Below are positions 9,518 through 56,187 of a stretch of 64,000 nucleotides of DNA, piece by piece. This stretch comes from an uncultured Bacilli bacterium. GTDB taxonomy: Bacteria > Bacillota_I > Bacilli_A > RF39 > UBA660. The notes beneath the pieces are model-generated. The model ran no database searches. It had not been told where the DNA came from and worked only from the letters and a program-made list of their open reading frames with translations. Every line of letters begins with the position of its first letter. Position 1 is the stretch's first letter. A program made the translations under genes and the position numbers. The stretch is from the NCBI GenBank assembly GCA_934131695.1, contig CAKOZV010000001.1, positions 74,060 to 138,059 of the forward strand. Reading direction: 5' to 3'.

Positions 9518-9561
9518 ATAGCTGGGAAAAAAAGTGAACTGCTTGTCTCAGCTATTTTTTT
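9518..9561 (+). terminator. Rho-independent terminator after clpB
   Basis: ATAGCTGGGA / TCTCAGCTAT arms (one G-U pair) followed by a T7 run. Confidence 0.5.
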
Positions 9562-9591
9562 ATGTTATTATATTTCTATAAGGAGGAAATA

Positions 9592-10287: not shown

Positions 10288-10402
10288 TATCTTTAAAAAG
10301 TAAAATAAAGCACTCTTTATAATAAGGGTGCTTTTATGATACAAAATTTTTTTCAACAATTTTTGTGGATAAAATATTTTATATTAATATTGGTGATATT
10401 AT

Positions 10403-10585
10403 ATGAAAGTAAAAATATTTGATTTTGAAGATGAAAGTGATTTAGAAGATGCAATAAACAACTTTTTGAGAGAATTAGAAGGGGATGTAATAGAAATTAA
10501 ATATCAAGTTAGTTCTTTTCCTAGTGGTGAAGAACAAATCTATTGTTTTTCTGCTATGATTATTTATTTTTATAAACAGACTTAA
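10403..10585 (+). CDS. Cse60-like small protein
   Basis: MKVKIFDFEDESDLEDAINNFL...IEIKYQVS...YCFSAMIIY matches my recollection of the B. subtilis Cse60/YteV family. Confidence 0.55.
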   Translation: MKVKIFDFEDESDLEDAINNFLRELEGDVIEIKYQVSSFPSGEEQIYCFSAMIIYFYKQT

Positions 10586-11819
10586 CACCATAATAAAGAG
10601 GAAAGTATTTCTTATATTTTTTATAACTGTTTAAATCTATTGGATAATCAAACTCACCAATATGTTCAAATAATTTAGCTCCAAAGTTTTGTTTAAAGAA
10701 GAACCCACCATCATTTATATCTTTTACTTCATAAAAATTATAAGACCTATAGCCATATTCAATAGCTTTTTTAAGCATCTTAAAGTGAATAGAATAAGAT
10801 ACATCTAAATCAATATATTCATCATCCATTCCTCCAATTAGAGCGGTAATTTCTTTTCCATACATCAAGAATAAGTATCCCCCTAAGAAAATCTTATCAT
10901 TATCTGTTTTTTCCTTTAGGGATAAATAATACTTTCTTCGCTTATTTATAATATTAATCTGTTCTTTATAGCCAAGTTCCTTCTCAATAAAAGTTTCCTC
11001 TGTTAATTGATTATTTTTATATAGACCTATTCTTTTTTCTTTTTCTATTTGTAATACTTTTTCTTCTTTCTTAAGATTATTAAGAGTAGTATTTAAATCA
11101 AGTTCAGCAATCATTATTTTTAAATGTTCACTAGTAAAAGAATTAGCTAAATCTTCATAAAAAGGAAGTTCATATTCAATAGTATTAAACTTACTACTAA
11201 TCTTATCCATTGTTTTAATAAAGATAGGTAATTCATCTTGCTTTAGTTCTCTTACAATGTAACCAAGTCTTTCATTTCTTTTAAGAATTTGTCTAGCTTT
11301 TTTTGACATATTATTTAATATATCATTAAGGCTTTTGTTAGTTAAATCAAGTTTCATCGTATATTTAGGATTAATAGTGTTATTATCAGTTTCAATAAAA
11401 CCTAGTTTTAATAAATAATCTTTTATAAATAAATTATTTATACCACCTTGCAATTCTTTACCATCCTCATCTTTCTCAGTGGTTAATATTTCAGGATCTA
11501 TTTTTAGATAGATACCATTTTTTTCCTTAACAAAGTTAATTACTTCTTTAGTAAATATTTCTAATAAATCATAATTTTTATAGTCGATTAAAAAACCTTG
11601 AGGAGCATAGAAAAATCTTTTCTTAATACTTTTATTTTCATTAGCTAAAAGTAAAGTGGCTCCTAACAATTTATTTTTATCTTCAAGACCTAAAAAATAA
11701 GAATGCCAATTCTCACCAATTTTAAAGTTAGCCCAATAAATACTTTGCTCAAAAGGGCATATTTCTAGGTAATTAATAAATTCATTAAATTCTGTTTTAG
11801 AAAGTTCTACAAGTTTCAT
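10560..11819 (-). CDS. FemAB-family peptidoglycan interpeptide-bridge aminoacyltransferase
   Basis: 419 aa with two GNAT-like lobes split by a coiled-coil insert, the typical FemX/FemA layout. Paralogous to 13559..14767. Confidence 0.8.
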   Translation of the reverse strand: MKLVELSKTEFNEFINYLEICPFEQSIYWANFKIGENWHSYFLGLEDKNKLLGATLLLANENKSIKKRFFYAPQGFLIDYKNYDLLEIFTKEVINFVKEKNGIYLKIDPEILTTEKDEDGKELQGGINNLFIKDYLLKLGFIETDNNTINPKYTMKLDLTNKSLNDILNNMSKKARQILKRNERLGYIVRELKQDELPIFIKTMDKISSKFNTIEYELPFYEDLANSFTSEHLKIMIAELDLNTTLNNLKKEEKVLQIEKEKRIGLYKNNQLTEETFIEKELGYKEQINIINKRRKYYLSLKEKTDNDKIFLGGYLFLMYGKEITALIGGMDDEYIDLDVSYSIHFKMLKKAIEYGYRSYNFYEVKDINDGGFFFKQNFGAKLFEHIGEFDYPIDLNSYKKYKKYFPLYYGVKSVYKNK

Positions 11820-11906
11820 TTTATCACCCCACCTTAAACTAATTATACTTGATTCTTTAACTTAGTGCAAGATTATGATATGATTATATAGGAAAGTGGT
11901 GAATAT

Positions 11907-13559
11907 ATGCGAAAGAAAGAATTAAAACAAAACTCCTTTCTAAATGGAGCTTTTGTAGCAACCATGGGAATAGTTATTACTAAAGTGTTAGGTATGCTTT
12001 ACGTAATCCCGTTTTATGCAATTATTGGTGAACAAGGTGGAGCACTATATGGATATGCCTATACTATCTACTTGCTATTTCAGTCCTTATCTTGTGCTGG
12101 TATTCCTAATGCTATTTCTAAAATAATTAGTGAGTATCAAACTTTAGGTTATAGTAAAGCGAAAGAAAAAGCCTTTAAGATAGGTAGAAGACTAGCTATC
12201 TTCATGGGAATATTTGTTTTTATTATCTTATTCTTATTTGCTCCAATTATAGCAAAGGCAATTATTGGCGATTTAACAGGAGGTAACACATTAAGTGATG
12301 TAACTTATGTTATTAGAGTAATTGCCACAGCTATATTAGTAGTACCAATCTTAAGTATTTATAGAGGTTATTTAGAAGGTCATAAGTTTATAACTCCAAC
12401 AGCTATTTCCCAAGTGGTAGAACAAGTAGCTCGTATTGTGGTTATTATAGCTGGCTCATATGCTGCTTTAAATGTATTTCATTTATCTTTGACAACAGCA
12501 GTAGGAGTAGCAACTTTTGGAGCAACAGCTGGTGCATTAGTTGGTTATTTATATCTACTTGATAAGGTATTTAAACATAAGAAGGAAATAAATAATATAA
12601 CTGAAGTAAAAGAAGAACCAGTTATTTCTACTAAAGAAATATTAGGAAAGATATTCTTCTATGCCTTACCATTCATTATGATAGATGTCTTCAAATCAGC
12701 CTATAACTTTGTTGATATGACCACCCTTGTTAAGACTTTGGTTCATTCAGCAGGTTATACTACAGTAGCGGCAGAAAACTCTATGAGTGTAATTTCTACT
12801 TGGGGAAATAAACTTAATATGATAATTGTCTCTATTTCTACAGGTATAATTATAAGTCTAATACCTAACCTTACTTCATCATCTGTTAAAGGTGATAAAA
12901 AAGATGTTCATCATAAGATTAATCAAACCTTACAAATATTGCTATTCCTATCAGTACCAATGACTATAGGTCTATCATTCTTATCAAAACCAGTTTGGGA
13001 TGTATTCTATGGAAATAGATCAGCAGTAGGGGCAGAAATTATGGCATACTATATCTTTGTTGCTTTAATAATTTCTACTTATACAGCTTTAGTATCTATC
13101 GTACAAGTCTTAAAATATTATAAAGAAGTGTTTATTTCTCTATTTGCTGGTGTGCTAATCAAAGCTTTAACTAATGTTTATTTAATTAAAACATTCTATG
13201 GACTAGGACTTCAACCAGTATATGGTTCCATAACTGCTACTATTTTAGGTTATTTAGTAGGGATAGTCTTATGCCTTTACTACTTAAAAAAGAAATGTGG
13301 AGTTAGTTATAAACCGACTATTAGAATTATTGGAAAGATTGTTATCGCTGATATCTTTATGATACTTTCCTTATTCCTAGTTAAATTCGTAGTACCAATT
13401 TCCTCATCTATAAGACTTTTAAATATTCCAATTATTTTAGTTTATACTATTATAGGAGCAGGGGTTTATTTATTAGCATCTTATAAATCAGGTGTTGTTG
13501 AAGAAGTATTAGGTAGTAAAATGTTAGCTAAAATTAAAAGAAAGGTGGCTAAAAAATAA
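11907..13559 (+). CDS. MOP-superfamily flippase (MurJ/YtgP/SpoVB-like)
   Basis: 550 aa with about 14 TM segments. The N-terminal FLNGAFVATMGIVITKVLGMLYVIPF is typical of polysaccharide-biosynthesis/lipid II flippases. Confidence 0.8.
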   Translation: MRKKELKQNSFLNGAFVATMGIVITKVLGMLYVIPFYAIIGEQGGALYGYAYTIYLLFQSLSCAGIPNAISKIISEYQTLGYSKAKEKAFKIGRRLAIFMGIFVFIILFLFAPIIAKAIIGDLTGGNTLSDVTYVIRVIATAILVVPILSIYRGYLEGHKFITPTAISQVVEQVARIVVIIAGSYAALNVFHLSLTTAVGVATFGATAGALVGYLYLLDKVFKHKKEINNITEVKEEPVISTKEILGKIFFYALPFIMIDVFKSAYNFVDMTTLVKTLVHSAGYTTVAAENSMSVISTWGNKLNMIIVSISTGIIISLIPNLTSSSVKGDKKDVHHKINQTLQILLFLSVPMTIGLSFLSKPVWDVFYGNRSAVGAEIMAYYIFVALIISTYTALVSIVQVLKYYKEVFISLFAGVLIKALTNVYLIKTFYGLGLQPVYGSITATILGYLVGIVLCLYYLKKKCGVSYKPTIRIIGKIVIADIFMILSLFLVKFVVPISSSIRLLNIPIILVYTIIGAGVYLLASYKSGVVEEVLGSKMLAKIKRKVAKK

Positions 13560-14767
13560 TGCTAGAAGAATTAACTGAAAAAGAGTTTCAAGACTTTTCA
13601 AAAAAACACCCATTAAGAAATTTTATGGAAACAGTAGAAATAGGTAATCTTAGGAGGAAAAATGGTTGGACTGTTAAATATATTGGCCTTAAAGAAAAGA
13701 AAAAAATAGTAGGAGCAACAATGCTTCTTTCTAGGAAAAGACATTTTAATATGAATGAATTTTATGCTTTAAGAGGGCCACTACTTGATTATAGTAATGA
13801 TAATCAGGTAGAAACATTTTTGAAAGAGTTGAAAGACTATGTTAAAAAGAATAATGGTTACTGTCTAAGGATTGATCCGTACCTTCCTATTAGAAGATAT
13901 GATAATGATAAAGAACTAGAAGTTCCAAAGACAAACATACTTAAAATACTTGAAACATTAAAGTTTAAGAAAAGTGAAAAACAAGAACAAGTTTCTTCTA
14001 TGTATGTCCTTGATTTGGAAGGGAAAAGTGAAGATGATGTTTTAAAGGAAATGAAACCTAATACTAGAAATATTATTCGTAAGAATATTAAAACAGGTAT
14101 TGAGGTGTCAGAATTAAAAAAAGATGAGTTAGAAAACTTCTATGAGATAATGCTTGAAACGGGTAAACGTAAAGGATTTAGAGTAAGAAACATTGCTTAT
14201 TATGAAAATATGTATGATTTATTTTCTAAGAAAAAAGAAATTAAGTATTTAGTTACTAGACTAGATCTTAACAGGTATATCAGTTTATTAAATGAAGAAA
14301 TAGAAGAAAATACTAAAAAGAAAGAAGCTTTATCTGATTCTAGATGTAATGATGGTAAGAGAAAGAGTTTTGATGAGACTATTAATTCATTAAAGAAAAA
14401 GGTAGATATAGCCAAACAGCAAAAAAAAGAAAAAGGATTATCAATTATTACACTTGCTGGATCTATGTTTATTATGACTGATCCAGAAATAGTTTATCTA
14501 TCTAGTGGTAATTATGAAAAATATTTAATGTATAATTCCCAGTATTTGATTCAGTGGGAAATGATTAAGTATGCAATAGAACATGGCTATAAAAGATACA
14601 ATTTCTATGGTACACCTACAACTAATAAAGATGATAAAACTTATGGTATTTATCAGTTTAAAGCCAGCTTTAATGGATATATGGAAGAATTATTAGGCGA
14701 ATATGAAGTTGGTACATCTTTAGTTTATTATCTTGTAAAACTAATTCATAAAATAAAAAAGTCATAG
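13559..14767 (+). CDS. FemAB-family aminoacyltransferase
   Basis: 402 aa with the same architecture as 10560..11819. The start overlaps the flippase stop (TAATG). Confidence 0.8.
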   Translation: MLEELTEKEFQDFSKKHPLRNFMETVEIGNLRRKNGWTVKYIGLKEKKKIVGATMLLSRKRHFNMNEFYALRGPLLDYSNDNQVETFLKELKDYVKKNNGYCLRIDPYLPIRRYDNDKELEVPKTNILKILETLKFKKSEKQEQVSSMYVLDLEGKSEDDVLKEMKPNTRNIIRKNIKTGIEVSELKKDELENFYEIMLETGKRKGFRVRNIAYYENMYDLFSKKKEIKYLVTRLDLNRYISLLNEEIEENTKKKEALSDSRCNDGKRKSFDETINSLKKKVDIAKQQKKEKGLSIITLAGSMFIMTDPEIVYLSSGNYEKYLMYNSQYLIQWEMIKYAIEHGYKRYNFYGTPTTNKDDKTYGIYQFKASFNGYMEELLGEYEVGTSLVYYLVKLIHKIKKS

Positions 14768-14773
14768 ATTATT

Positions 14774-15523
14774 CTATGGCTTTTGTGTTGTATCAGTTTG
14801 CGTTGTTGTGCTTTGACTAGGCACAGTAGTTACTGTTCCATCAGTAGTAGACTTATCTTTATTATCAGTAGTAGTATTATCACCAGTTGATAAGATATTA
14901 TTTTCTTGATCTTCTGTTACTGTAATATTAGCTGTATAAATACTATTATTATAAGTTACTGTATATTGATAAGTTCCAGGTTTATTAATATCAACTTCAG
15001 AAAAATTGAATTTTAACAAAGCTTTGATTTCATCAGTTAAAGGATTAGGCTCAGTAATATAATCAGCTGGATTAGTTGATAGAGCAGTTCCTTTCTTAAT
15101 AGTAAATGATTTTATTGATATAGTATCAACTTGATTAGTAGGAGCTATTTTTTCAATTACTTTTATAGTACCTTCAAACTCTTTCTTTTTATAATAAACC
15201 TTGTATTTATAAGTACCTACTTCTTTAACATTAACACTACTAGTGTCAAGTTTTAAATTAGCTAATACCTCATCACTAACCGTTTCATCTAAATAATCGG
15301 CTATTTTTATACTAAGTGGTGTATTAGTTTCAATCTCAAAGTTTTTAAGCTTTATATTAAAATCAGCTTTCTCATTATCTTGCATTTTCTGTGATACCAC
15401 TAGTGCAATAGTCTGATTATTACTCTCTTGATCTAATTTGGAATAAAGGCATCCACATGAGATACAAAGTATTCCTAATAGGGTAAAAGAAGAAACGACT
15501 ATTAAACGGATTTTCTTATCCAT
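14774..15523 (-). CDS. Membrane-anchored protein with two ~70-aa internal repeats and a T/Q-rich tail
   Basis: N-terminal TM. Two related modules (..VGTYKYKVYYKKKEFEGTIKV.. / ..PGTYQYTVTYNNSIYTANITV..) look like Ig-like domains. Confidence 0.5.
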   Translation of the reverse strand: MDKKIRLIVVSSFTLLGILCISCGCLYSKLDQESNNQTIALVVSQKMQDNEKADFNIKLKNFEIETNTPLSIKIADYLDETVSDEVLANLKLDTSSVNVKEVGTYKYKVYYKKKEFEGTIKVIEKIAPTNQVDTISIKSFTIKKGTALSTNPADYITEPNPLTDEIKALLKFNFSEVDINKPGTYQYTVTYNNSIYTANITVTEDQENNILSTGDNTTTDNKDKSTTDGTVTTVPSQSTTTQTDTTQKP

Positions 15524-15607
15524 TTATAATCCCACCTTTTCTATCTTATTTACATTATATGATAGATTTTTTTCTGTGGCAAGTAAAAAATCTAATTCTT
15601 TTTGGAA

Positions 15608-16543
15608 TTAGACATTGTCGCCTTGATAGATATTATCTTTTACCATCTTTTTATCTATCTCATTTAAAACTTCAAATTTCTTTAAAAGCCAAGTAGGTTC
15701 TATTAAATCTTCCTTTTTAGGATCCCCGGTTATTCTATGAATTACTATCTCTTTTCTTAAATAAGTTAATTGTTTTACGGTGATATTTACATATTCATCT
15801 CTTGTTAATACTTTGAAAGGATGATTTTTATACATTATTTCTAGCGGAGTATCCTTTAGAATATGAAGCATATGTATTTTTATCCCTTGTATATCTAATT
15901 TGTTTAAATATTTAACGGTATTTAGCATATCTCTTTCAGTCTCATAAGGTAATCCATTTATGATGTGGATAACGACATTAATATTTCTAGCTCTTAATTT
16001 TTTTACCATGGATTCAAACTCTTCAACAGTTTCGCCTCTATTAATTAACTTTAAAGTTTCTTTCTTACTAGATTGTAATCCAAGCTCTACTTGTAAATAA
16101 CATCTTTTACTAATTGACTCTAAATAGTCAAGACACGGATCACTTATAGAATCACTTCTAGTAGCAATGGCAAGTCCTACACAGTCTTTATGATTTATAA
16201 ATGGCTCAAAGTAACTCTTTAAAATATCAACACTAGCATAAGTATTAGTCCTTGCTTGAAAGTAAGCAATAAATTTAGCATTAGGCCACTTGCTTTGCAT
16301 CATCTTTTTACCTTTGATAAATTGTAACATTAAACTGTCGTTTATGTCACCAGCAAAGTCACCACTACCAGACTTAGAACAAAAAATACAACCACCATAA
16401 CTTTTTTTACCATCAATATTAGGACAAGAAAAGTTAGCATTTAAACTAACTTTAGCAATTTTACAACCAAACTTATGTTGATAAAAGTAAGTTAAAGTAT
16501 GATATCTTTTATTATCAATGGTGTAAGGAAACTTATTCTCCAT
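15608..16543 (-). CDS. TIGR01212-family radical SAM protein (YhcC-like)
   Basis: CPNIDGKKSYGGCIFCS cluster motif and overall YhcC-like length. The ATG at 16543 is preferred to the GTG at 16552; either overlaps the end of the patatin gene. Confidence 0.8.
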   Translation of the reverse strand: MENKFPYTIDNKRYHTLTYFYQHKFGCKIAKVSLNANFSCPNIDGKKSYGGCIFCSKSGSGDFAGDINDSLMLQFIKGKKMMQSKWPNAKFIAYFQARTNTYASVDILKSYFEPFINHKDCVGLAIATRSDSISDPCLDYLESISKRCYLQVELGLQSSKKETLKLINRGETVEEFESMVKKLRARNINVVIHIINGLPYETERDMLNTVKYLNKLDIQGIKIHMLHILKDTPLEIMYKNHPFKVLTRDEYVNITVKQLTYLRKEIVIHRITGDPKKEDLIEPTWLLKKFEVLNEIDKKMVKDNIYQGDNV

Positions 16544-44916: not shown

Positions 44917-45222
44917 ATGGATGAGCGTGTAAATGGTGGAGTGGTTGTAGATGCTGGACATGGAGGTAGCGATCCTGGAGCTATTAGTGGTAATTTAAGA
45001 GAAAAGGACTTTACCTTGGAAGCGGCTCTATATATGTATGATAGATTTAAACAGTTAGGTGTTCCTGTTGTTATTACAAGAGATTTTGATGAGGATTTAA
45101 GTAGGGCAGATAGACTTAAAAGAGCTAATGAAGCATTTAATGGTGATCCTAACACTATATTAATATCTAATCACATAAATGCAGGGGGAGGAGATAGCCG
45201 TTATGTAACAAAGTATGTATAA
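44917..45222 (+). pseudogene. N-acetylmuramoyl-L-alanine amidase (Amidase_3), 5' fragment truncated by island insertion
   Basis: VVVDAGHGGSDPGA...EKDFTLEAALY...ISNHINAGGG is the first half of the Amidase_3 domain. After about 45194 the frame runs into island DNA (DSRYVTKYV*). Confidence 0.8.
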
Positions 45223-45397: not shown

Positions 45398-46432
45398 ATG
45401 TTAACATTAGAAGAAAACAAAATTATTGATCAGTATGTTAATGAAAAATATTATGATAAAAGTAAGTTGATAAAATATTTGAATATGCATGAGATTGTTG
45501 GCAATGAAATATTTTCATATTGTGATAAAAAGATATATGGTTCTCCAACTTATTCCAATTGGCTTGATAGTGAAGCAGGATATAAGCCAGTTAGTAAAGA
45601 TATTTTTATTAAGCGAATACCTTTTTATTTTTATGTTGTTGATAGGGATGATATTAATCTTCAAAATTTTGGTTGCTTAAGTTATCTTTATACAAAAGAT
45701 AATACTAATTTAGAAGAAATTTTTAATGCTCTTGAATATATGTTTTATTCATTAAATATACCATTATATACAATATTTAATTATCATATTATTCAATCTG
45801 GAGTTGTGAGTAGTGATATTTTTTTGGAATGGAATCATTATCTTCATTTATGCGAGGAACTAGGGGAGAAAGATTATTGTCCTGAACATTTTATTAGTTC
45901 TTATAATTATTTACTAGAAAAAAGTAATCTAAATCCAATAATATATGAGATTGATGAGTATTTTAATTTTGAACCATTTTTTCGAGAAGGAACAAAATTA
46001 GTATTTGAAGGAGTTTTTCCAGTTGATGAAAATAATAATCCTATCATGAAATGGATTGGACTAAAGATTACAAATGTAGAGAATATAAAATGTAATTGTG
46101 AGAAATCAAAAAGTGGAAGGCTTGAAATTGTTATCACGCCTAAAACAGTAATACATGCTTTAAATTATTATAATTATCAAGATGAAGAAGGAGATTATTG
46201 GTATCAAATTTATGCAGGACCTCAAAATATGTACTTTGATTATGAAATTTTAAAAGAAAAAAGAAAAAAATTAGGTTTTACTCAAAAACAGGTTTCTGAT
46301 GCAGTTGGTACAAGTGTTAGAACTTATCAAAAATGGGAAGTTGGCGACACAATACCAGATGGTTATTTTCTTATTAGATTATTAAATTGGTTAGACATTC
46401 CTGATATTCAAAATGTTGTAAAGTATTTATAA
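45398..46432 (+). CDS. Protein with unknown ~290-aa N-terminal region and C-terminal XRE-type HTH
   Basis: The C-terminus LKEKRKKLGFTQKQVSDAVGTSVRTYQKWEVGDTIP is a classic Cro/C1 HTH. Confidence 0.65.
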   Translation: MLTLEENKIIDQYVNEKYYDKSKLIKYLNMHEIVGNEIFSYCDKKIYGSPTYSNWLDSEAGYKPVSKDIFIKRIPFYFYVVDRDDINLQNFGCLSYLYTKDNTNLEEIFNALEYMFYSLNIPLYTIFNYHIIQSGVVSSDIFLEWNHYLHLCEELGEKDYCPEHFISSYNYLLEKSNLNPIIYEIDEYFNFEPFFREGTKLVFEGVFPVDENNNPIMKWIGLKITNVENIKCNCEKSKSGRLEIVITPKTVIHALNYYNYQDEEGDYWYQIYAGPQNMYFDYEILKEKRKKLGFTQKQVSDAVGTSVRTYQKWEVGDTIPDGYFLIRLLNWLDIPDIQNVVKYL

Positions 46433-46643: not shown

Positions 46644-47231
46644 ATGAGTAATAAAGAAAAATTAATTGAATTTTTAAATAGAAATCATGGATATATTACT
46701 ACTGCAGAATTTTTAACATTGGGTATGAGTAAACCTTTGATTCAAAAGTTTTTATATGAAGGATTAATTGAAAGAGTAAGCTATGGTTTATATATGGATA
46801 ATAAGATATTAAAAGATGAATACTTTATTTTACAAAAAAAATATCCATTAGCAATATTTTCTTATAATACTGCACTGCATATTCTTAATTTAACAAATAG
46901 AACTCCAATACAAATAGATATAACTGTTCCTAGAGATAAAAAAGTAAGAGGAAATTATAATATTCATAGAGTTTCAGAGAAGTTTTATGATATTGGAATA
47001 ATTGAAGCCCTAAGTCCAAATGGAAATCCAGTAAAAATATATAATGCTGAAAGATGTATTTGTGACATGTTAAGAACTGAAGGAGAATTTGATTTAGAAC
47101 TTCAAAATAGAGTTTTAGATTATTATTTTCATAGCAAAGATAAAGATATTGATAAATTATTAGAATATGCGAAGAGCTTTAATATTTATGAAAAAGTTAA
47201 TACAATTGTGGAGGTAATGATGAAATGGTAG
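46644..47231 (+). CDS. abiEi: AbiEi-family antitoxin/transcriptional regulator (type IV TA)
   Basis: 195 aa. N-terminal winged-helix-like ...GYITTAEFLTLGMSKPLIQKFLYEGLIERVSYGLY. Overlaps the downstream AbiEii-like gene by 7 nt. Confidence 0.7.
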   Translation: MSNKEKLIEFLNRNHGYITTAEFLTLGMSKPLIQKFLYEGLIERVSYGLYMDNKILKDEYFILQKKYPLAIFSYNTALHILNLTNRTPIQIDITVPRDKKVRGNYNIHRVSEKFYDIGIIEALSPNGNPVKIYNAERCICDMLRTEGEFDLELQNRVLDYYFHSKDKDIDKLLEYAKSFNIYEKVNTIVEVMMKW

Positions 47232-48076
47232 AAGAGAAGATTAAATTAAAAGCTAAAGAACTCGAAGATAAGTATAATTTAAATTACTATGAATCATTAC
47301 AAAGATTTATGTTTGAAAGAATAATAGAAAGAATATCTGTTTCAGAGTATCAAGATAATTTTATATTAAAAGGTGGATTGTTGCTTGCTGCAATGTTTGG
47401 TATAGAAAACAGAACAACAAAAGATATGGATACTACAATTACTGGTATAGATATTTCAAAAGATAAAATGGTAAATGTTTTAAATGAGATACTATCTATT
47501 AATTTAAATGATGGAGTTAAATTTGATATTGTAGGTATTACTGATATAAGAGAAGAAGATGAATATGGTGGAAATAAATATCATATTACTGGTAAAGTAA
47601 ATAGTACTAAAGTAAATTTGGAAATTGATATATCAACAGGTGATAAAGTAACTCCAAAAGAGTTGAAGTTTAAATATCCTTTGTTATTTGAAGATAGAAG
47701 TATTTTAATTAATAGTTATAATATTGAAACTATACTAGCTGAAAAAATGGAAACTGTTTTAAGACGTGGAAAGTATAATAGTAGAATGAAAGATTATTAT
47801 GATATATATTTCTTTTTAACAAAGTTAAAAAATGAAATTAATGTAAATATATTAAAAGATGCAATTAATAATACTTTTACTAAAAGAGATTCTTTTGAAT
47901 ACTTAAATGATTATCGTGAAATTATTAAATCAATTATTGATAGCGAAAGAATAAAAACTAATTGGAAATCTTATTCGAAGAAGAATAGTTATGCAAAAAA
48001 TTTAGAAGTAGATCACATAATGATTTTACTAAACAATTTTATAAAAGAATTAAATTTAGAATTAGTAACGGTATAG
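47225..48076 (+). CDS. abiEii: AbiEii/AbiGii-family nucleotidyltransferase toxin (DUF1814)
   Basis: 283 aa. FILKGGLLL...TKDMD (NTase G-x-x...D motif region) and the characteristic RMKDYYDIYFF. Confidence 0.75.
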   Translation: MVEEKIKLKAKELEDKYNLNYYESLQRFMFERIIERISVSEYQDNFILKGGLLLAAMFGIENRTTKDMDTTITGIDISKDKMVNVLNEILSINLNDGVKFDIVGITDIREEDEYGGNKYHITGKVNSTKVNLEIDISTGDKVTPKELKFKYPLLFEDRSILINSYNIETILAEKMETVLRRGKYNSRMKDYYDIYFFLTKLKNEINVNILKDAINNTFTKRDSFEYLNDYREIIKSIIDSERIKTNWKSYSKKNSYAKNLEVDHIMILLNNFIKELNLELVTV

Positions 48077-48158
48077 GGATTGGGAGTGTTCCCATAATAT
48101 GCGAAAAGTGCATGTGGGAGGAACTTTTCAATACTTGCTAAGTTAAGAAGGTGAAGTA

Positions 48159-48983
48159 ATGAATGAGCAGTATTTAGACTCTGAAGTAAACGAATACATA
48201 GAAATAAGAAGTGACAAATCTGATTTAGAATCAAAATGGAAAATGGCAATTGGACTACAGCAAGTTGATAATTTAACACCCTCTGAATATATGAAAAATT
48301 TAGTAAAATTAAATATTAAGAATGAAATATCACTAGATGAATTAGAAAACAGACTAAAGAAATACTATGATGATCTAAATGGTAGCTATAATAGAGATGA
48401 GCATGAATGTGATTTCGTATCATTAAGAATTATGCAAATATTACAAAATGATATGTTTTATTTAACGATAGATTTTTATAAATATGTTCATTACTTTTAA
48501 TTTAAAGATGTTTATAAGTTTGCAGGTAAATTTAGAGAAGCTAATATCTCAAAAAATGAAGCAATATTGAATGGTGATACAGTAGTATATTGTGACTATA
48601 GTCGAGTTAAAGATTATCTTATTTATGATTTTTCAGATGAAAGACAGGAAGATTATAAAAAGTTAAGTGTATCAGATAAAATAATAAGTATATCTAATTT
48701 TACTTCTTGTATTTGGCAAGTACATCCTTTTATGGAAGGTAATACTCGGGCAATGGCAGTATTTATAATTAAATATTTAAAAGAAATAGGATATAATATT
48801 AATTATTCTTTGTTTAAAGACAATTCAAAATATTTTAGGAATGCATTAGTTAGAAGTAATTATAGTAATGATATATTAAATATAAAAGAGGATAATAGTT
48901 ATTTAATTAAATTTTATGAGAATTTGTTATTAGGTAAAAATAATAATCTAAAATTAGAAAAATTAAGTATAGGAGGTAATTAA
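48159..48983 (+). pseudogene. Fic/DOC-family gene interrupted by one in-frame TAA (48498-48500)
   Basis: ORFs 48159..48500 and 48567..48983 are in the same frame. Read-through gives ...YVHYF*FKDVYKFAGKFREANISK..., the conserved Fic core. Fic motif variant HPFMEGNTRAMAVF. Confidence 0.75.
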
Positions 48984-48985: not shown

Positions 48986-51418
48986 ATGGCAAAAAAGGAA
49001 ATAAGAACAGATCTTTGGGTATATGATTTATTGAAAGAGGCAGAAATTAAAATAGATCCTCAAGGATGTAATATTAAAGAGATTGATGAGGCCTTAAAAA
49101 CAGCTTCAAAAAAAGGAACGGGTAATTCAGGATATCCAGAATATTGTGGTGTTGTAAAAGATTTTGTAATAGTAATTGAGGATAAAGCTTCAATGGATAA
49201 ACAATCAAAATATAATGATAATGGTATTTTAGATATGGAAATCTCTTCAATCAGAGATTATGCTTTAAATGGTGCATATTTTTATGCTAAGCATATATTA
49301 GAAAGGACAAATTATAAAAAAGCTATTGCGTTTGGAATAAGTGGAGATGAAAAACATCATACTATTAAACCAATTTATTTAGATGGAAGAGAATATTTTA
49401 TAGATTTGCCAGAAGTTGAAAGTTTTATTTCTTTTAATGAGATTAATATTGATGAATATTATGTTAGAGAAATTTTAAAAGAAAACACTGAAGAAGAGAA
49501 AACTACTGCTGAAATTTTAAAAGATGCAAAAGAGTTACATGAATATTTAAGAAATTATGGTAATCTTAGTGACAAAGATAAACCATTAGTTGTTAGTGGT
49601 ATTTTACTTGCATTAAAAGAAATAGAATTTAAAAATTTTTCTATTAATGATTTAGTTGGAGATAATGTTAATACAGATGGTTCTAAAATTTATTCTGCTA
49701 TTAATGATAATTTAAAAAGGTCCCAAGTTTCTCCAGAAACCAAAAAAGATAAATTGTTATCTCAATTTGCAATTATTAAGGATACTGTAATACTTAATGA
49801 AGTAAATGAAGTATTAGGGAAAACTCCATTAAAATATTACACTGAGTATTTATATAATAAATTATATAAAACAATTAGATATAATCAGACATCAGAAGAT
49901 TATTTAGGTAGATTTTACGGTGAATTTATGAGTTATTCAGGAGGTGATGGGCAATCATTAGGTATTGTATTAACTCCAAAACATATTTGTAATTTATTTT
50001 GTGATTTAATAGATTTAAAACCAACTGATGTAGTTCTAGATCCATGTTGTGGAACTGCTGGATTTTTGATATCGGCAATGCATGATATGTTAGGAAAAAC
50101 AAAAGATGAGCATAAGAGAATATGTATAAGAAAAAATCAATTACATGGGTATGAATTACAACCATATATGTTTACTATTGCTACAACAAACATGATACTT
50201 CGAGGTGATGGGAAGAGTAATTTAATATGTGATGATTTTCTTGCTCAAGATGCTAATAAATTGCAATTAAAAGGTGCAACTGTAGGAATGATGAATCCAC
50301 CTTATTCAATGGGAAAAGTAAGCCCTGAGAAGTGTGAATTAAGTTTCATTGAGCATTTGCTGGATAGTTTAATTAGTGGTGGTAGAGCGATTGTTATTGT
50401 TCCACAAAGTGCAATGACTGGAAAAAATAAGTATGAGCAAAATATTAAACATAATATTTTAAAACATCATACTTTAGAAGGTGTAATTACACTTAATTTA
50501 AATACATTTTATGGTGTTGGGACAAATCCATGTATAGCAGTTTTTACTGCTGGTATACCTCATAATAAAGATAAAAAATGTAAATTTATAGATTATATTG
50601 ATGATGGTTTTAAGGTATCTCCTCATAGAGGATTAGTTGAAACAGAAAGTGCCAAAGATAAAAAGCAACACTTGCTTGATGTATGGTTTGATAGAATAGA
50701 AACAGATACAAAATTTTGTGTTAAGTCTACTGTAGAGTATGATGATGAATGGCTACATTCTTTCTACTATTTTAACGATGAAGTACCAAATGAAAAGGAT
50801 TTTGAAGAATCCGTATCAGACTATTTATCATTTCAATTTGATATGATTATGAAAAAAAAGAACTATTTATTTGAAAATCAGAGGAATAAATTAAAAGATT
50901 TAAAATATGAAAAAATTACTGACTTATCTTTACAAGAATGGCACGAGGTTAAATTAGATTTATTAATTGACGAAGTAAATCGTGGCTGTGTTGGAAATAT
51001 AGGTAATCTTATTGAAGGTAATTGTCCTATTGTAACAGCATCTGCTTCTAATCAAGGTGTGGCATTTTTTGGTGATATTGCTTATGCATATACTGATGGT
51101 GTTACAATATCTTTAAATGGTGTTGGAACAGGTTATTCTGCTTATCATGATTACCAATTTAATTTGAACTCCGATTGCGGCAAAATTAAGTTTAAAATCA
51201 ATTTAAATAAATATGTTCTTATATTTATATCAGCAGCAATTAATAAAAATCAGAGTAAATTTACCTATGCATATAAAGCAAACGAAACTCGTATAAAACG
51301 ACAAACAATCTTGCTACCTTATAAAAATAATAAAATAGATTATGAATATATGGAAAAATATATCAAAAATGTCATGTATATACAGTATAATAGATATTTA
51401 GATTTTTTAAATAAGTAA
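48986..51418 (+). CDS. Fused nuclease-like / N6-adenine methyltransferase / specificity (TRD) protein (Type IIG-like R-M-S)
   Basis: N-terminus GYPEYCGVVKDFVIVIEDK (PD-ExK-like). Methylase motif I VLDPCCGTAGFL and motif IV NPPY. The C-terminal ~190 aa resemble one HsdS target-recognition domain. Confidence 0.75.
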   Translation: MAKKEIRTDLWVYDLLKEAEIKIDPQGCNIKEIDEALKTASKKGTGNSGYPEYCGVVKDFVIVIEDKASMDKQSKYNDNGILDMEISSIRDYALNGAYFYAKHILERTNYKKAIAFGISGDEKHHTIKPIYLDGREYFIDLPEVESFISFNEINIDEYYVREILKENTEEEKTTAEILKDAKELHEYLRNYGNLSDKDKPLVVSGILLALKEIEFKNFSINDLVGDNVNTDGSKIYSAINDNLKRSQVSPETKKDKLLSQFAIIKDTVILNEVNEVLGKTPLKYYTEYLYNKLYKTIRYNQTSEDYLGRFYGEFMSYSGGDGQSLGIVLTPKHICNLFCDLIDLKPTDVVLDPCCGTAGFLISAMHDMLGKTKDEHKRICIRKNQLHGYELQPYMFTIATTNMILRGDGKSNLICDDFLAQDANKLQLKGATVGMMNPPYSMGKVSPEKCELSFIEHLLDSLISGGRAIVIVPQSAMTGKNKYEQNIKHNILKHHTLEGVITLNLNTFYGVGTNPCIAVFTAGIPHNKDKKCKFIDYIDDGFKVSPHRGLVETESAKDKKQHLLDVWFDRIETDTKFCVKSTVEYDDEWLHSFYYFNDEVPNEKDFEESVSDYLSFQFDMIMKKKNYLFENQRNKLKDLKYEKITDLSLQEWHEVKLDLLIDEVNRGCVGNIGNLIEGNCPIVTASASNQGVAFFGDIAYAYTDGVTISLNGVGTGYSAYHDYQFNLNSDCGKIKFKINLNKYVLIFISAAINKNQSKFTYAYKANETRIKRQTILLPYKNNKIDYEYMEKYIKNVMYIQYNRYLDFLNK

Positions 51419-51437
51419 ATAGAATATGGAGTTTAAA

Positions 51438-54400
51438 ATGGATTTTGATGAAGATAAAATGTATGAATTATTTGATAACATGATTAAAAAATCAAATGAT
51501 TCGGATATGGTTAAAATAGCAATATTAAAAAATGAAATAAAAAATTATAATATTTATGACTTTTTACTTGGAATTTCAGCTCTAAATCTAATACCTGAAA
51601 ATCAATCTAAATCAATAATCTTTAATACTGTTATTAGTGCTGCACTCTCTATTCCCATAACTGATTATAATATGAATAACAAGATAAGTATGGGAAAATT
51701 TAAATCAATAATAAAAAAGTTTGAAAATCTAGATATAAAGAGGAATATAGATCCTCCAGAGTTTCCATTTATTCAGAAAGTTATATTTTATAAAAATTAT
51801 GATTTGTTTATGGGTGTTAATAATGTTTCTAATTTGGATATTCAAAGTTTCTTATATACTTTGAAAAAAAATAATAATAATTTGACTGAACCTAATTTAA
51901 AAAGAATAAATACTTATATTGAAATGCTTTTGAATATTTCAACCAATATTAGCAGCAAATTAAAAATAAAAAGCATGTTAAAATCTGATCATTCTTATGA
52001 TGATGACATTATTTTTCCAAATTCAAATGAATTTAAATTTCTAAAGGAAATTTTGATACAAAATGTAAATGATTACTTACATTTAAAATTAGATAATGAG
52101 TCGTTTGATGGTTTGTTTTTTGAACATTGTGATAGTATTTATAGTGATTATTTTGATTTTGATAATCAATATTATTATTTTCATCCACTATTAAAAATAT
52201 CCAGTGATGAATTTTTTCCTTTAGATATAACAATTTTTCCATTATTATTAATGAATAAAATATGTTCAATTATTTTAAATGATAAAAATGCTCAAATTCT
52301 GGTTAGTGATTACATAAATATTACAAAAAGAGAAATTGTAGAATATTATCATATGATGGGGTGCTATAAAATAAATGCATCTAAACATGACATTCAATTA
52401 TTGGATAATATTAATTATACTGAACAAATTTTTTCAAATGGTAATGATAATGTAATTATAAGCATTAGTCCTATAAATAATGGTGATAAGTATTCAAAAG
52501 ATAAAATAGTTTCTGATTTTAAAATGAAAATTGATGATCAATTTATTTATAATCATTTGAAAGAGGTAATATCTAAACTAAACGATATAGGCACTTCAAA
52601 TGATAAAATTATGATAATAGTAACACCTTTTTCAATGGGAAGAAATTTTATATTTAGAGTTCCTAATGTTGGAATAGAAACTGTTAGTTTACATAAATAT
52701 GAATTAAGAGCAATATCAATTAACGAAACTAATCAAAATATGTTTTTAAAAAGATATCTAATAGCTAAAAATAAAATTCAAGTAATTCCGAGTTTATTTA
52801 GTGAATTAAATTTAATTGGGATGTACACTGAAAAGGATTATTCATTCTATTTCGATGATAATATTGATATGAAAGAAACAAGTCTTCATTATTTTGGAGA
52901 ATATAGTTCTTCTTATATAGAAAAGGCTGATAGAAAAGAAAATAAACATTTAGTTTCATCTTATGATAAGAATTATAATTGTGAAGTTATAAAAAATGAT
53001 GATGATATTTATTTAGTAAGTGACCACTTTAGAGATAAATGCTTAAAAATATGTATAGAAAAAGAAAATAAACTTGTTTGGATAATTACAGATGTTATAG
53101 AGGATGTAAATTCATTAACTTTATATAAAAACCTTATGGATTATATATCGTATTGGTTTAATCTATATTTAGATGGTTTTAATGGTGATTTTAATGTTAC
53201 AATTAAACTAAAATTAAATGGCGAAATAACAAAATATTTTATTTCTCAAAATATAGATGAAATGTCTGATACATTAAAAATTTCTGAAAGTGTTGAAAAT
53301 ATAATTTTTGATTTTTACCCATCTATTATGACTGTCTTAGATTGTGAAGATAATTTAAATGAAAAAAAACTTTATATTTATATAATCAAAGAGTTAGGAC
53401 AAATTTTAAAAATTAATTTATATAATAATGAAATAATTGAAAAAATATTTGCTGATCCAAATAGAAAAAGGTCAGTAACCTTACGTTGTGAAGAATTTGC
53501 GTACTTGAAACCATTCCATGATAATAAGGAAAGATTAATTAATGCTTCAGATGAAAATATAATATTAGATGAAATTGGTCTTTTAGTTAAGAATGAAAAA
53601 AGATTATCATATGGAAAAATTAGTTTGAATGAAAGCAAAAATATTTGTAATTTTATTGTTGATAAATTATATAATGATATTTCTAATACAATTAAAAAGT
53701 TTAATAAAAAACAATTACTTAATGTATTATATTATGAAAGTGAGAGAATATTATCTAATTTAATGATTCAAAAAGAATCTTATATAAATAATATCGCTTG
53801 TTTTCCTCAACATAAAGATGATATAGACAAAAGATTCAATGAGTCAAATAAAAGTTCAATGGCAATTAGATTCTTAATAGAGCTATCTTCTTCTTTTGAA
53901 AAATGTGGAGATAATATAATTGATGAATATGAGTTAGAGTTATTAATGGCTAAAAGTTCGTTATTAATTGAATGGGCATATCGAAGTGATTTATTTAATT
54001 ATAAAATGATGGATACCCCACTAGAAATGTTAAAGTCAAACAGATTAGGATTTAATCACGATGAATATTACTCTATAAATAATTCTTTTGCAACTCTAAG
54101 AGAAGAACAAATGGGATCTGTCGGTCGAGATAAAATGAAAGAACTTTTAAACGGTTTCGTTAGAGAAAAAATGAATGATGAAAAATTCGAAGATATATTT
54201 TTAAAAGAATATGGTTTTAGCACGAATGAATTATTTGTTGTTTTTTGGAAATTAATAGATTTATGTAAAGATGAAATATCAGAAATAAGTATTATAAAAT
54301 TAGTTAATGTACTGCATGGTGATCTTAGTGAAGAAAAAATAAGAAACATAATTGATAAATTTTCATTAAAATCCCGAAAAAATTTTTTAGAAGTAGACAA

Positions 54401-55100
54401 GCCATATTCTAAAGAAGATGTTTACCCTTGGAGATTTAATAGAGAATTATCATTTAATCGTAGACCTTTGATATTAGACGGAGAAAATATAATATGGGGG
54501 AATAGAAACTTAAGCAATTCTGTATTTTTCTTGTTTGATTTAATTAGTAGTGGAAAATTAAAATCTCATAGTTTGGAAATGAAACAATATATTTCAAAGA
54601 TAAATGAAAATAGAGGGAAAAATTTTAATAATATGATATTTAATTATATTTCTAAATTTCCAAATGTTATTGTAGATAAAAATGTAAGTAAAGTTAACAA
54701 AGAAAAAATTGTAGATTTTAACAAGGATACGTTAGGAGATATAGATGTTCTTTGCATTATACCTAAAAATAAGAAAATAATATTAATTGAAACGAAAAAT
54801 TTTAATTCTGTTAAAAATTATTATGAATTATATAATGAATATAAAAACATTTTTATTGATGAAGAAGGATATAAAAGTTTTTTAACAAAACATAAAAATA
54901 GAGCAAAATGGGTAAAAGAGCATATTCACGATGTTATTGTAGAATATAATCTGCCATTAGGAAATTATAATGTTTATTACATGTTTGTTACAAGTGAATA
55001 CTGCTTAGCGAATAAAGTTTTTAATTTGAAAGAAAATATTTATTCTGCTAAAGAGTTAAATTATTCAACTTTAATCAATTTGAGGAAAAATAAATTATAA
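51438..55100 (+). CDS. Large (about 1220 aa) uncharacterised protein with C-terminal PD-(D/E)xK-like nuclease motif
   Basis: GGAG RBS 6 nt before the ATG at 51438 (ORF-track start 51426), only 7-19 nt after the methylase stop. C-terminus GDIDVLCIIPKNKKIILIETKNF. No Walker A or helicase motif seen. Confidence 0.7.
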   Translation: MDFDEDKMYELFDNMIKKSNDSDMVKIAILKNEIKNYNIYDFLLGISALNLIPENQSKSIIFNTVISAALSIPITDYNMNNKISMGKFKSIIKKFENLDIKRNIDPPEFPFIQKVIFYKNYDLFMGVNNVSNLDIQSFLYTLKKNNNNLTEPNLKRINTYIEMLLNISTNISSKLKIKSMLKSDHSYDDDIIFPNSNEFKFLKEILIQNVNDYLHLKLDNESFDGLFFEHCDSIYSDYFDFDNQYYYFHPLLKISSDEFFPLDITIFPLLLMNKICSIILNDKNAQILVSDYINITKREIVEYYHMMGCYKINASKHDIQLLDNINYTEQIFSNGNDNVIISISPINNGDKYSKDKIVSDFKMKIDDQFIYNHLKEVISKLNDIGTSNDKIMIIVTPFSMGRNFIFRVPNVGIETVSLHKYELRAISINETNQNMFLKRYLIAKNKIQVIPSLFSELNLIGMYTEKDYSFYFDDNIDMKETSLHYFGEYSSSYIEKADRKENKHLVSSYDKNYNCEVIKNDDDIYLVSDHFRDKCLKICIEKENKLVWIITDVIEDVNSLTLYKNLMDYISYWFNLYLDGFNGDFNVTIKLKLNGEITKYFISQNIDEMSDTLKISESVENIIFDFYPSIMTVLDCEDNLNEKKLYIYIIKELGQILKINLYNNEIIEKIFADPNRKRSVTLRCEEFAYLKPFHDNKERLINASDENIILDEIGLLVKNEKRLSYGKISLNESKNICNFIVDKLYNDISNTIKKFNKKQLLNVLYYESERILSNLMIQKESYINNIACFPQHKDDIDKRFNESNKSSMAIRFLIELSSSFEKCGDNIIDEYELELLMAKSSLLIEWAYRSDLFNYKMMDTPLEMLKSNRLGFNHDEYYSINNSFATLREEQMGSVGRDKMKELLNGFVREKMNDEKFEDIFLKEYGFSTNELFVVFWKLIDLCKDEISEISIIKLVNVLHGDLSEEKIRNIIDKFSLKSRKNFLEVDKPYSKEDVYPWRFNRELSFNRRPLILDGENIIWGNRNLSNSVFFLFDLISSGKLKSHSLEMKQYISKINENRGKNFNNMIFNYISKFPNVIVDKNVSKVNKEKIVDFNKDTLGDIDVLCIIPKNKKIILIETKNFNSVKNYYELYNEYKNIFIDEEGYKSFLTKHKNRAKWVKEHIHDVIVEYNLPLGNYNVYYMFVTSEYCLANKVFNLKENIYSAKELNYSTLINLRKNKL

Positions 55101-55442
55101 TGTTACTATGTCAATGATGTCAAAGTTTGTCATATAAAAATACTTTAAAAAACTAATTAATAGTATTATAATTATTATAGTTACTTGGGAATGTAACTTC
55201 TGAAACATATAAACATATAGTGTCATTTAGCGTTTAGACACAAGTAATAGGTAAATAACCTATAATTTAAAGTTCATATAGAACTGTACATATTTTTCCA
55301 ACAAACAAGATTGGATAAAATTCCCTTGCTTTTGCTGTGGATTAATATGTCCAGTTCTTTTTATGTGTTCCTAAAAAACACTGGTAAAGAAAGGAGGATA
55401 TAATGGAACTACTAAATTTGATAATCTTATATTGGAAAGATA

Positions 55443-55955
55443 ATGAGAAAAGATATAGAACCTTTTATAAGTTTAGTAATACCAGAAGCAGTATTAGGAG
55501 ATAATAGACTAACATTTTTAGAAAGATTATTGTTAATTGAAATAGTGTCACTATGTAAGAAAAATGAGTAATGTTGGCCTACTAACAGATATTTTATGAA
55601 TAAATTTGATTGCACAAAGCCTACAATATCAAAAAGTATAAGTAGTTTATCAAAATATAACTATATTGATATAGAAATCAATAATAGTGAAAAAAATAAC
55701 TCAAAGAGAATAATTAGGTTATCTGAGGTATTAAAGAAAAGAATAATAAGTATTCAAGAAAATGCTAATGCTAGTACTCAAAATAATTTTAACCATTATA
55801 ATAAATATAAAAATAATAAAAAAGATATATTAAATGATATTTATTCAGTTGATGATAAAGGCAACGAATATTGGCATGGCGTAAAAATTGAATCAGAAAA
55901 AATGACAGATGGAGAAGTAAAAGAATTAGAAGATTTATTAAAAAATTTCAAGTAA
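55443..55955 (+). pseudogene. Phage/plasmid-type HTH (replication-organiser-like) gene interrupted by in-frame TAA (55569-55571)
   Basis: The ATG at 55443 and ORF 55596..55955 share a frame. Read-through gives ...LTFLERLLLIEIVSLCKKNE*CWPTNRYFMNKFDCTKPTISKSISSLSKYNYI, the (G)YCW-ASN-YF...ISR..I..L pattern of such HTH proteins. Confidence 0.6.
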
Positions 55956-56187
55956 TAAAGGAGGATTGAATAAATAATATGTATAAACAAGTCATAAATT
56001 TAAATGAGGTGGCTTATGTTTAATATAACTGAAACTTTTAAAAATGATTCTCCTAATTTCAAAGAACTGGTATCTAAATATATAAAAAGTGTGATTAATA
56101 ATGCTTGACATCATAGATGTACTTGAATTAATGTGTTATACTTTAAGTGGCTTTAATTTGTTATACAAAATGGAAGGAGAGTAAAAA

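Follow-up and report, generated by a model that had tools for sequence, protein, structure and literature searches.

Two neighbouring genes on the forward strand of a 64,000-nucleotide (nt) stretch of DNA from an uncultured Bacilli bacterium of the UBA660 lineage (contig CAKOZV010000001.1, positions 74,060 to 138,059; hereafter the window) are, very probably, two independent, self-sufficient and already known defences that stand side by side. Gene 1 (48986-51418; 810 amino acids (aa), with its TAA stop at 51416-51418) is predicted to be an ordinary and apparently intact restriction-modification (R-M) enzyme that carries all of its activities on one chain. Gene 2 (51438-55100; 1220 aa, or 1224 aa from an alternative ATG at 51426, the form that its residue numbers follow here) is a divergent member of the Upx family (Pfam PF28173, Upx-like) and would act as a stand-alone sensor-nuclease defence protein. 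A preliminary description of the window had taken the pair for an undescribed, methylation-linked two-gene module. Both genes belong to described systems, gene 2 to a known single-gene system whose homologues are not tied to the gene 1 methylase, and the candidate new defence system does not stand.

Gene 2 is a divergent Upx

Upx was reportedly first described by Gao et al. in 2020 as a single-gene antiphage system. Several searches place gene 2 in this family. It matches the PADLOC Upx model PDLC02221 with an E-value of 6.2e-24 (residues 590-1170 against positions 612-1224 of 1271) and, co-linearly, the NCBIfam model NF042954 (Upx_antiphage) with 6.6e-30 (residues 502-1170 against 503-1197 of 1240). 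When the single sequence was compared with all sequences in the PDB using phmmer, the sole real match was 9wuf_A, the cryo-electron microscopy (cryo-EM) structure of the Salmonella enterica homologue SeUpx, at 1.7e-7; a profile built from 35 sequences of the gene 2 family likewise matched 9wuf_A and nothing else, at 5.4e-33 and over residues 523-1173 (SeUpx 546-1226). An AlphaFold2 (AF2) model of residues 25-1224, with a mean predicted local distance difference test score (pLDDT) of 88.6 and a predicted template-modelling score (pTM) of 0.85, superposes on 9wuf over its full length, the N-terminal domain included (Foldseek E 9.8e-41, probability 1.0, TMq = TMt = 0.70, 1316 columns), and the next Foldseek match follows at E 0.12. 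PADLOC, NCBIfam, the PDB profile and Foldseek all lead to the same family, whereas the preliminary description could not assign gene 2 to any family by eye and took it for part of an undescribed system.

The homologues of gene 2 tell the same story. All 54 of its 54 close homologues carry PF28173; the local Pfam results for gene 2 itself, among which PF28173 does not appear, hold only a sub-threshold and uninformative NERD match (0.0082). A single-sequence search of 1.84 billion representative proteins returned 1,548 clusters at E <= 1e-3, nearly all of them 1150-1280 aa long and matching end to end. Scores on the Upx model rise step by step among distant full-length relatives (124-248 bits), and the gene 2 clade therefore grades continuously into canonical Upx.

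The domain layout of gene 2 can be drawn by comparison with SeUpx, in which the N-terminal domain spans residues 1-515 and the middle domain residues 516-714 (PMC13099982). The N-terminal domain of gene 2, presumed to be the sensor of a phage protein, would take up about residues 1-492 (51426-52901, limits transferred from SeUpx); it shows a weak co-linear profile match to SeUpx (residues 28-284 against 42-290, i-Evalue 1.3) and contains a D109-P110-x-E112 element that is invariant in the homologue alignment. A middle domain would follow at approximately residues 493-690 (52902-53495), as placed by the profile alignment and the SeUpx limits. In the C-terminal domain the motif YPWRFNR (residues 1000-1006; 54423-54443) aligns with YPWRFGR of SeUpx, and its W1002, N1005 and R1006 are invariant among the homologues. 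The PD-(D/E)xK nuclease core (54621-55097) contains the stretch GDIDVLCIIPKNKKIILIETKNF (residues 1104-1126), and with it the residues D1107 (54744-54746), E1122 (54789-54791) and K1124 (54795-54797), which are invariant in 35 homologues. In the AF2 model the aspartate lies on one beta strand and the ExK on the next. The three residues align with D1161, E1176 and K1178 of SeUpx (GDIDLL...VIECK in 9wuf) with the same 15-residue spacing from D to E, and in SeUpx this triad is required for defence (PMC13099982).

The preliminary description had already seen a restriction-endonuclease-like D...E-x-K at the C-terminus, which the alignment with the SeUpx triad bears out, and it had found no Walker A, DEAD/DExH or PLD motif. 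A regular-expression search of gene 2 agrees, with no GK[ST], no DE.[DH] and no H.K....D motif. Its picture of an uncharacterised sensor/effector holds in so far as a sensor would be joined to a C-terminal PD-(D/E)xK effector, but the family is one that has been described.

In E. coli, SeUpx (from S. enterica NCTC6026), HpUpx and PbUpx each give defence, or respond to a trigger, with no second gene (PMC13601566, PMC13099982). Zhou et al. 2026 solved the cryo-EM structure of SeUpx, reported a magnesium (Mg)-dependent 3'-5' exonuclease activity on single-stranded DNA, and noted that the PDB contained no further protein of similar structure (PMC13099982); Evans et al. 2026 found three Upx homologues, with identity as low as 16%, to be activated by the ATPase domains of phage large terminases (PMC13601566). 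Like SeUpx, gene 2 encodes a single polypeptide in the range of ~1220-1270 aa with a three-domain fold and stands alone in defence islands; the two share co-linear profile similarity from about residue 500 to the C-terminus, the YPWRF(N/G)R motif and a PD-(D/E)xK triad of identical spacing. If Evans et al. are right, Upx resembles Avs2 in that it detects the ATPase domain of the large terminase and answers with a nuclease or cell-death effector. Avs2 is a STAND nucleoside triphosphatase (NTPase), and gene 2, unlike it, has no NTPase (no Walker A) and no TPR sensor and bears no sequence or fold relation to it.

In RefSeq and GenBank, members of the gene 2 clade are labelled 'hypothetical protein', as in a C. 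butyricum megaplasmid (NZ_CP033248; L105), in Listeria and in C. perfringens. A plasmid search gave only five records. A plasmid of Deinococcus sp. QL22 (L106, 2223-10169) carries two large 'hypothetical' genes of ~1280 and ~1230 aa in tandem, the second of them Upx-like, an arrangement that fits the 'second Upx' association mentioned by Evans et al. Elsewhere (L008/L009, 7457-11126) Upx is called as two open reading frames (ORFs) of 179 and 1041 aa and is probably frameshifted or N-terminally truncated.

Gene 1 as a BcgI-family R-M enzyme

Judged by its domains and conserved residues, gene 1 is a single-chain fusion of restriction, modification and specificity parts (R-M-S) of the BcgI family and would form a stand-alone R-M system. 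Its class is written here as Type IIB/IIG rather than Type IIB, the criterion for Type IIB being a biochemical one. Residues 3-631 match the PADLOC model REase_MTase_IIG (PDLC03602) from end to end of its 637 positions at 2.6e-171, in line with the Type IIG/IIB-like single-chain enzyme that had been proposed at the outset. The three parts of the 810-aa protein also come out as first described, with Pfam, PADLOC and motif positions in agreement. The N-terminal nuclease motif of the PD...ExK type, P51-E52 ... E65-D66-K67 (49136-49186), lies in GYPEYCGVVKDFVIVIEDK (residues 49-67). The gamma-class N6-adenine methyltransferase follows at 49892-50734 (Pfam PF02384 N6_Mtase, 8.5e-33, residues 303-583), with VLDPCCGTAGFL at residue 350 and NPPY at residues 437-440. 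Last comes a single HsdS-like target-recognition domain (TRD) at 50804-51370 (PADLOC Specificity_II, 1.2e-20, residues 607-795), which covers positions 140-326 of the 341 in the model and thus represents half an S subunit, with one TRD only. All three parts are encoded on the forward strand.

Alignments of 19 and 24 gene 1 relatives show P51, E52, E65 and K67 to be invariant, as are motif I (D352-P353..G356) and motif IV (N437-Y440) of the methyltransferase; past about residue 620 the sequence varies among relatives. Close homologues have a precomputed Pfam Methylase_S assignment. An AF2 model of gene 1 (pLDDT 77) finds Type I HsdM, Type IIG BpuSI and Type IIB BsaXI in Foldseek, the last being a solved Type IIB example with which gene 1 was compared. 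The family is large, with more than 7,000 matches at E <= 1e-20 in a word-index search in which gene 2 has tens, and its members come in three sizes: ~637 aa (restriction and modification parts only), ~810 aa (one TRD) and ~1000 aa (two TRDs).

The likeness to BcgI lies in the N-terminal PD...ExK nuclease, where E52 of gene 1 matches in position BcgI Glu53, a residue of the PD...EXK motif (PMC3592470). It extends to features of the BcgI family as a whole, namely a Type I-like gamma N6-adenine methyltransferase with NPPY, an HsdS-type recognition module and the lack of a translocase. Unlike BcgI, an A2B enzyme with a separate B subunit that holds two TRDs, gene 1 has its specificity part fused, with one TRD in 810 aa, and it differs in the same respect from its ~1000-aa relatives, in which two TRDs are fused. 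Single-chain Type IIB enzymes are known from HaeIV and AloI/TstI (PMC4027205).

Other assignments were tried and rejected. Pfam, PADLOC and motif searches gave no match to a ResIII, DEAD or SNF2 translocase in gene 1 or gene 2, and a Type I or Type ISP system, which is defined by a helicase-like translocase, was discarded for both genes. A MADS, BREX or DISARM component, or a Type I accessory protein, was likewise discarded: matches to MAD2 are confined to the methyltransferase region of gene 1 (43.6 bits, with an NCBIfam cut-off of 720; PADLOC mad2 2.7e-22, residues 294-543), and Pfam and PADLOC found no Brx, Pgl or Drm among the neighbouring genes. It had been argued from the start that a self-sufficient R-M-S enzyme would need no 140-kDa partner; this logic was correct, and gene 2 is no partner of gene 1.

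Separable cassettes

If gene 1 and gene 2 made up one system they would be expected to travel together, and they do so in the closest relatives only. A 92%-identical Upx has the same kind of IIG gene upstream, and this pair recurs in three contigs; in a tblastn search over the Upx loci, a full-length gene 1 relative adjoins this 92%-identical Upx and no other. At 82-86% identity (and at 84% in CAG:822) the slot of gene 1 is taken by a Type III Mod-Res pair. Further out, the genes adjacent to Upx are a C5 methyltransferase, an HpaII endonuclease and an ASCH protein at 51% identity, and DUF6076 with a Schlafen/AlbA protein at 49%; Cas12a lies nearby at 44%, and at 30-36% the neighbours are a kinase with a Schlafen-type helicase, AIPR, a PLD-helicase-DUF3427 protein, McrBC, or unknowns. 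An 87%-identical gene 1, for its part, was found in 20 contigs on a related AbiE/serine-recombinase element without Upx. The genes are thus separable, and gene 2 homologues in other genomes are not bound to the gene 1 methylase as the two-gene module implied. Upx functions without a conserved partner: its neighbours vary among close and distant homologues alike, and 125 neighbour proteins match 104 Pfam families.

The DNA itself records the seam. In blastn comparisons of the window with L099, L006, L008 and L023, homology to the Upx-less element (L099) ends at 51424, and homology to the Type III-linked elements that lack gene 1 (L006, L008, L023) begins at 51433. The two breakpoints are ~8 nt apart and define a cassette junction (51424-51433) at the boundary of gene 1 and gene 2. 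Compared with L010, the Upx of the window is 92% identical and gene 1 is 71% identical with a replaced TRD: positions 50851-51471 have no DNA homology between flanks that are 78-94% identical, which amounts to a swap of the specificity domain. The gene 1 copy in L099 keeps ~83% DNA identity through the TRD. The slot between the conserved Fic gene and Upx holds interchangeable R-M systems, and the cassettes on the two sides of the junction differ in their history.

The two reading frames are nonetheless closely packed. As had been noted, the large ORF begins 7 nt (ATG 51426) or 19 nt (ATG 51438) past the stop of gene 1 and has a GGAG of its own at 51428-51431. The start at 51438 is the likelier, with a product of probably 1220 aa, because the GGAG lies 6 nt ahead of it and close relatives are 1219-1220 aa long. 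All genes from AbiEi through Upx lie on the same strand with intergenic gaps of -7 to 82 nt, and gene 1 and gene 2 are probably co-transcribed. A scan of 45-58 kb for promoters and terminators gave counts not above those in shuffled controls and nothing between the two genes, although such a scan cannot prove co-transcription. A minus-strand 12/12 match to the sigma-70 consensus (TTGACA-18-TATAAT) at 55123-55094, at the Upx stop and pointing back into its 3' end, was treated as chance; comparison with six relatives shows a conserved -10 element, explained by its overlap with the last Upx codons and the stop, and a -35 element that is not conserved.

Upx genes in and around R-M operons

The neighbourhood of gene 2 raises the wider question of how often Upx is found with R-M genes. 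A census that took one genome per species and used the YPWRFNR motif as the retrieval pattern yielded 76 species-level loci, which were classified with Pfam-verified seeds. At least 18 of the 76, a raw count, place Upx within an R-M operon or just downstream of one. In 14 loci Upx stands right after hsdR or between hsdS and hsdR of a Type I operon, three times beside a Piwi gene; one locus follows a Type III system, and three follow Type II/IIG systems (Eco57I-like; a C5 methyltransferase with a BpuSI-like protein; a D12 methyltransferase with HNH). Among the homologue contexts drawn from assemblies, R-M genes are beside Upx in five of 11, plus the window itself. The kinds of R-M seen with Upx are Type I (after hsdR, or between hsdS and hsdR), Type III, BcgI-like, Eco57I-like, C5 methyltransferase with BpuSI-like, D12 methyltransferase with HNH, and C5 methyltransferase with HpaII. 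Gaps from R-M gene to Upx are mostly 2-111 nt. R-M domains rank first when the Pfam families of the -1 and -2 neighbours are counted, amid the 104 families mentioned above, and in the Upx tree the genes linked to R-M turn up here and there in at least four clades, interleaved with close relatives that are not so linked.

Some neighbours recur on a smaller scale. In three Bacteroidota loci (L069, L071, L072; ~2600-16400) the cargo between hsdS and hsdR of the Type I operon consists of a 763-aa Piwi-domain (pAgo-like) protein, a 287-aa protein and Upx, and a YgjP-like metallopeptidase comes after hsdR. The gene directly upstream of Upx is also, in several loci, one for a Schlafen group-3 helicase (PF09848; L014, L033, L039), which makes this the second neighbour to recur there, and a PLD-DEAD-DUF3427 helicase protein recurs too (L020, L033).

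PrrC, a resident of the EcoprrI Type Ic locus, depends functionally on its host R-M system. Payne et al. 2024, in their work on 'guilt by embedding', showed that R-M, BREX and DISARM operons commonly host unrelated defence genes, 96.7% of them in the same orientation (10.1101/2024.01.29.577857), and TgvAB is embedded in the Type I operon of V. cholerae VPI-2 (PMC11411939). Like PrrC and TgvAB, Upx homologues are found between hsdS and hsdR or right behind R-M genes, whose orientation they share and from which short gaps divide them; unlike PrrC, Upx has no known functional dependence on a host R-M system, and unlike the embedded cases the Upx of the window is appended to a single-gene Type IIB/IIG enzyme. 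The association of Upx with R-M is not reported in either of the Upx papers (PMC13099982, PMC13601566), nor by Payne et al. 2024 including their supplements. Since the latter show R-M, BREX and DISARM operons to host unrelated co-oriented defence genes, the pattern most likely reflects cassette traffic into a favoured landing site, a known habit of defence genes that embed in R-M operons.

A proposed layered defence and its alternatives

In the explanation that we propose, gene 1 would place methyl groups on host DNA and cleave, near its site, incoming DNA that lacks them, with its one TRD presumably working as a dimer or higher oligomer on what is presumably a bipartite site. By analogy with the characterised homologues, the N-terminal and middle part of gene 2 would sense a phage protein, be it the terminase ATPase domain or gp16; binding would free the C-terminal Mg-dependent PD-(D/E)xK nuclease (D1107/E1122/K1124), DNA would be degraded and the infection aborted. 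The two would make up a layered defence and not one machine, with restriction acting at DNA entry and Upx late, once packaging proteins have been made.

A number of points weigh against this account of two known and independent defences. Unlike the tested homologue, gene 2 is part of a low-GC Bacillota/Mycoplasmatota clade; it is ~16% identical to SeUpx and reaches only 103 bits on NF042954, below the equivalog cut-off of 1900. That model is set for proteins closely related to SeUpx, and the low score therefore excludes an 'equivalog of SeUpx' and not family membership; equivalence of function, in trigger and in substrate, is extrapolated from the characterised proteins. Zhou et al. 2026 describe a 'simplified' second nuclease site in the N-terminus of SeUpx (D122/D127-x-R129/E147/D173; PMC13099982), of which D122, D127 and R129 fall on I120, N124 and D126 of gene 2 in the weak N-terminal alignment (i-Evalue 1.3), N124 being invariant in the gene 2 clade. 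The triggers reported for SeUpx disagree as well, a terminase ATPase domain in one study (PMC13601566) and the ejection protein gp16 in the other (PMC13099982). Finally, some coupling of function or regulation would be compatible with the 19-nt gap in the window, with a 4-nt overlap in L010 and with the recurrence, in at least 18 of 76 species, of an R-M system of one kind or another directly ahead of Upx.

Such coupling can be spelled out. Upx might be preferentially wired into R-M operons, not as one half of a fixed protein pair but as a second-line backstop, much as PrrC is with EcoprrI: placement in the R-M operon, under its promoter, might keep a toxic nuclease at a level low enough to be safe, Upx might fire when a phage evades or inhibits restriction, or the 3' single-stranded ends left by R-M might feed the Upx exonuclease. 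The breadth of the census speaks for this, with R-M genes that surround Upx or directly precede it on its own strand in those 18 or more loci, at least seven kinds of R-M spread over Bacillota, Mycoplasmatota and Bacteroidota, R-M domains commonest at -1 and -2, at least four Upx clades involved and the gaps short. We regard it as unlikely all the same. SeUpx, HpUpx and PbUpx act or are triggered alone in E. coli; R-M is absent beside Upx in about three quarters of the loci, its presence varies between close relatives (L065 vs L070; L056 vs L014), and the R-M kinds offer no common protein for Upx to bind. The embedding of defence genes in R-M, BREX and DISARM operons is moreover a general phenomenon (Payne 2024; TgvAB). 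More doubtful still is the notion that the gene 2 clade is no antiphage sensor-nuclease and instead serves the mobile element, in the exclusion of competitors or in addiction, or that it has kept the fold and lost triggering of the Upx type. One could cite the low identity to the tested Upx proteins, the reported N-terminal nuclease residues that are not conserved (in a weak alignment), the constant location of gene 2 on integrative elements or islands, and the decay of this island in places, as in the neighbouring Fic gene. The ORF is full length, however, and the catalytic triad and many N-terminal positions are invariant across relatives of 28%-92% identity, which points to purifying selection on gene 2; its neighbours are overwhelmingly defence genes, and tested Upx homologues with only 16% mutual identity both sense terminases (PMC13601566). 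Least credible of all, to the point that we give it hardly any weight, is the original idea of one obligate methylation-linked system in which the methylase marks self and the 140-kDa protein is its sensor/effector. The shared orientation, the gap of 7-19 nt, the overlap in L010 and the recurrence in three contigs with the 92%-identical Upx would suit it, but each gene occurs without the other at >80% identity, the recombination breakpoints fall exactly between them, gene 1 has an intact nuclease of its own, gene 2 belongs to a characterised single-gene system, and the family sizes are far apart (>7,000 vs tens). Two separate defences, each complete in itself, remain the reading that we favour.

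The defence island

The pair lies in an island of ~14.7 kb (~45.2-59.9 kb) that is inserted in an Amidase_3-LysM gene and splits it. The 5' half of the amidase gene (44917-45222, forward strand) matches positions 1-82 of the 174 in the Amidase_3 model, and the 3' half (59931-61046, forward strand), with positions 99-173 and five LysM repeats, would complete an N-acetylmuramoyl-L-alanine amidase. Between them the order is a helix-turn-helix (HTH) protein, AbiEi, AbiEii, Fic, gene 1, Upx, a DnaD-like gene, a serine recombinase, a 182-aa ORF and Mrr. A scan for a transfer RNA gene as the integration site found none. Split genes of this kind recall the serine-recombinase 'intervening elements' in sporulation genes, and a related element (L099-L104) likewise splits a penicillin-binding-protein gene.

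At the left edge of the island stands the 344-aa HTH protein (45398-46432; HTH_3 at residues 285-333), whose N-terminal 280 aa have no family match. It is followed on the forward strand by the AbiEi/AbiEii toxin-antitoxin pair for abortive infection (46644-47231 and 47225-48076; PADLOC AbiEi 1.1e-58 and AbiEii 4.8e-91, Pfam AbiEii 6.8e-38). The Fic-domain gene (48159-48983, forward strand) is conserved and borders the variable R-M slot on its left, with ~70% DNA identity to the Fic genes of L006, L023, L001 and L010. Its HPFMEGNTR motif is intact, and an in-frame TAA at 48498-48500 (HYF*FKDVY, where the L010 orthologue reads HKYLFQDVY with Leu at the stop) splits it in ORF lists into 113 and 138 aa. 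The gene is probably a pseudogene, or else the stop is a sequencing error. An alternative genetic code was rejected: the TAA stands at a Leu position, and all large ORFs are intact under table 11.

To the right of Upx, the large serine recombinase of the mobile element (56188-57774, forward strand; Pfam Resolvase, Recombinase and Zn_ribbon_recom) is co-linear, together with Upx and the DnaD-like gene, with L008 at 85% identity over 51433-57833. The 182-aa ORF on the reverse strand (57838-58386) has no Pfam match, and the last gene (58788-59747, forward strand) encodes an Mrr-type (Type IV) restriction endonuclease (Mrr_cat 3.2e-36, Mrr_N 5.9e-25). The defence island with AbiE, Fic and Mrr that was first described is confirmed for all three, the Fic gene with its in-frame TAA.

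Related elements carry other cargo. In L008 (1-188 and 15830-16123) the same amidase halves as in the window (44948-45185 and 59884-60071) flank the element, inverted relative to the Upx-recombinase block; the cargo there is Ymh, a Type III R-M system and SLFN_AlbA_2, and that of the window is AbiE, Fic, IIG and Mrr. L010 (707-2130, against 46644-48983 of the window) has no AbiEii, and an AbiEi-like gene is followed by an intact Fic gene with overlapping ends, which may be a toxin-antitoxin-like pairing.

Implications for the Upx family

What the locus adds is a Upx clade of low-GC gut Bacillota and Mycoplasmatota that goes under 'hypothetical protein' in public records and is missed by the NCBI equivalog model, together with a confident full-length model of a divergent Upx. 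The residues of the second, N-terminal nuclease site may not be conserved across the family, which bears on the current dispute over the role of the Upx N-terminus, nuclease or sensor. Were the coupling of Upx to R-M true, the IIG-Upx pair of the window would be one instance of a general and unreported layered module that joins R-M to a terminase sensor. As it stands, about a quarter of Upx genes lie in or after R-M operons, and the clean swaps of cassettes at the Upx start codon offer a small lead on how defence islands are assembled.

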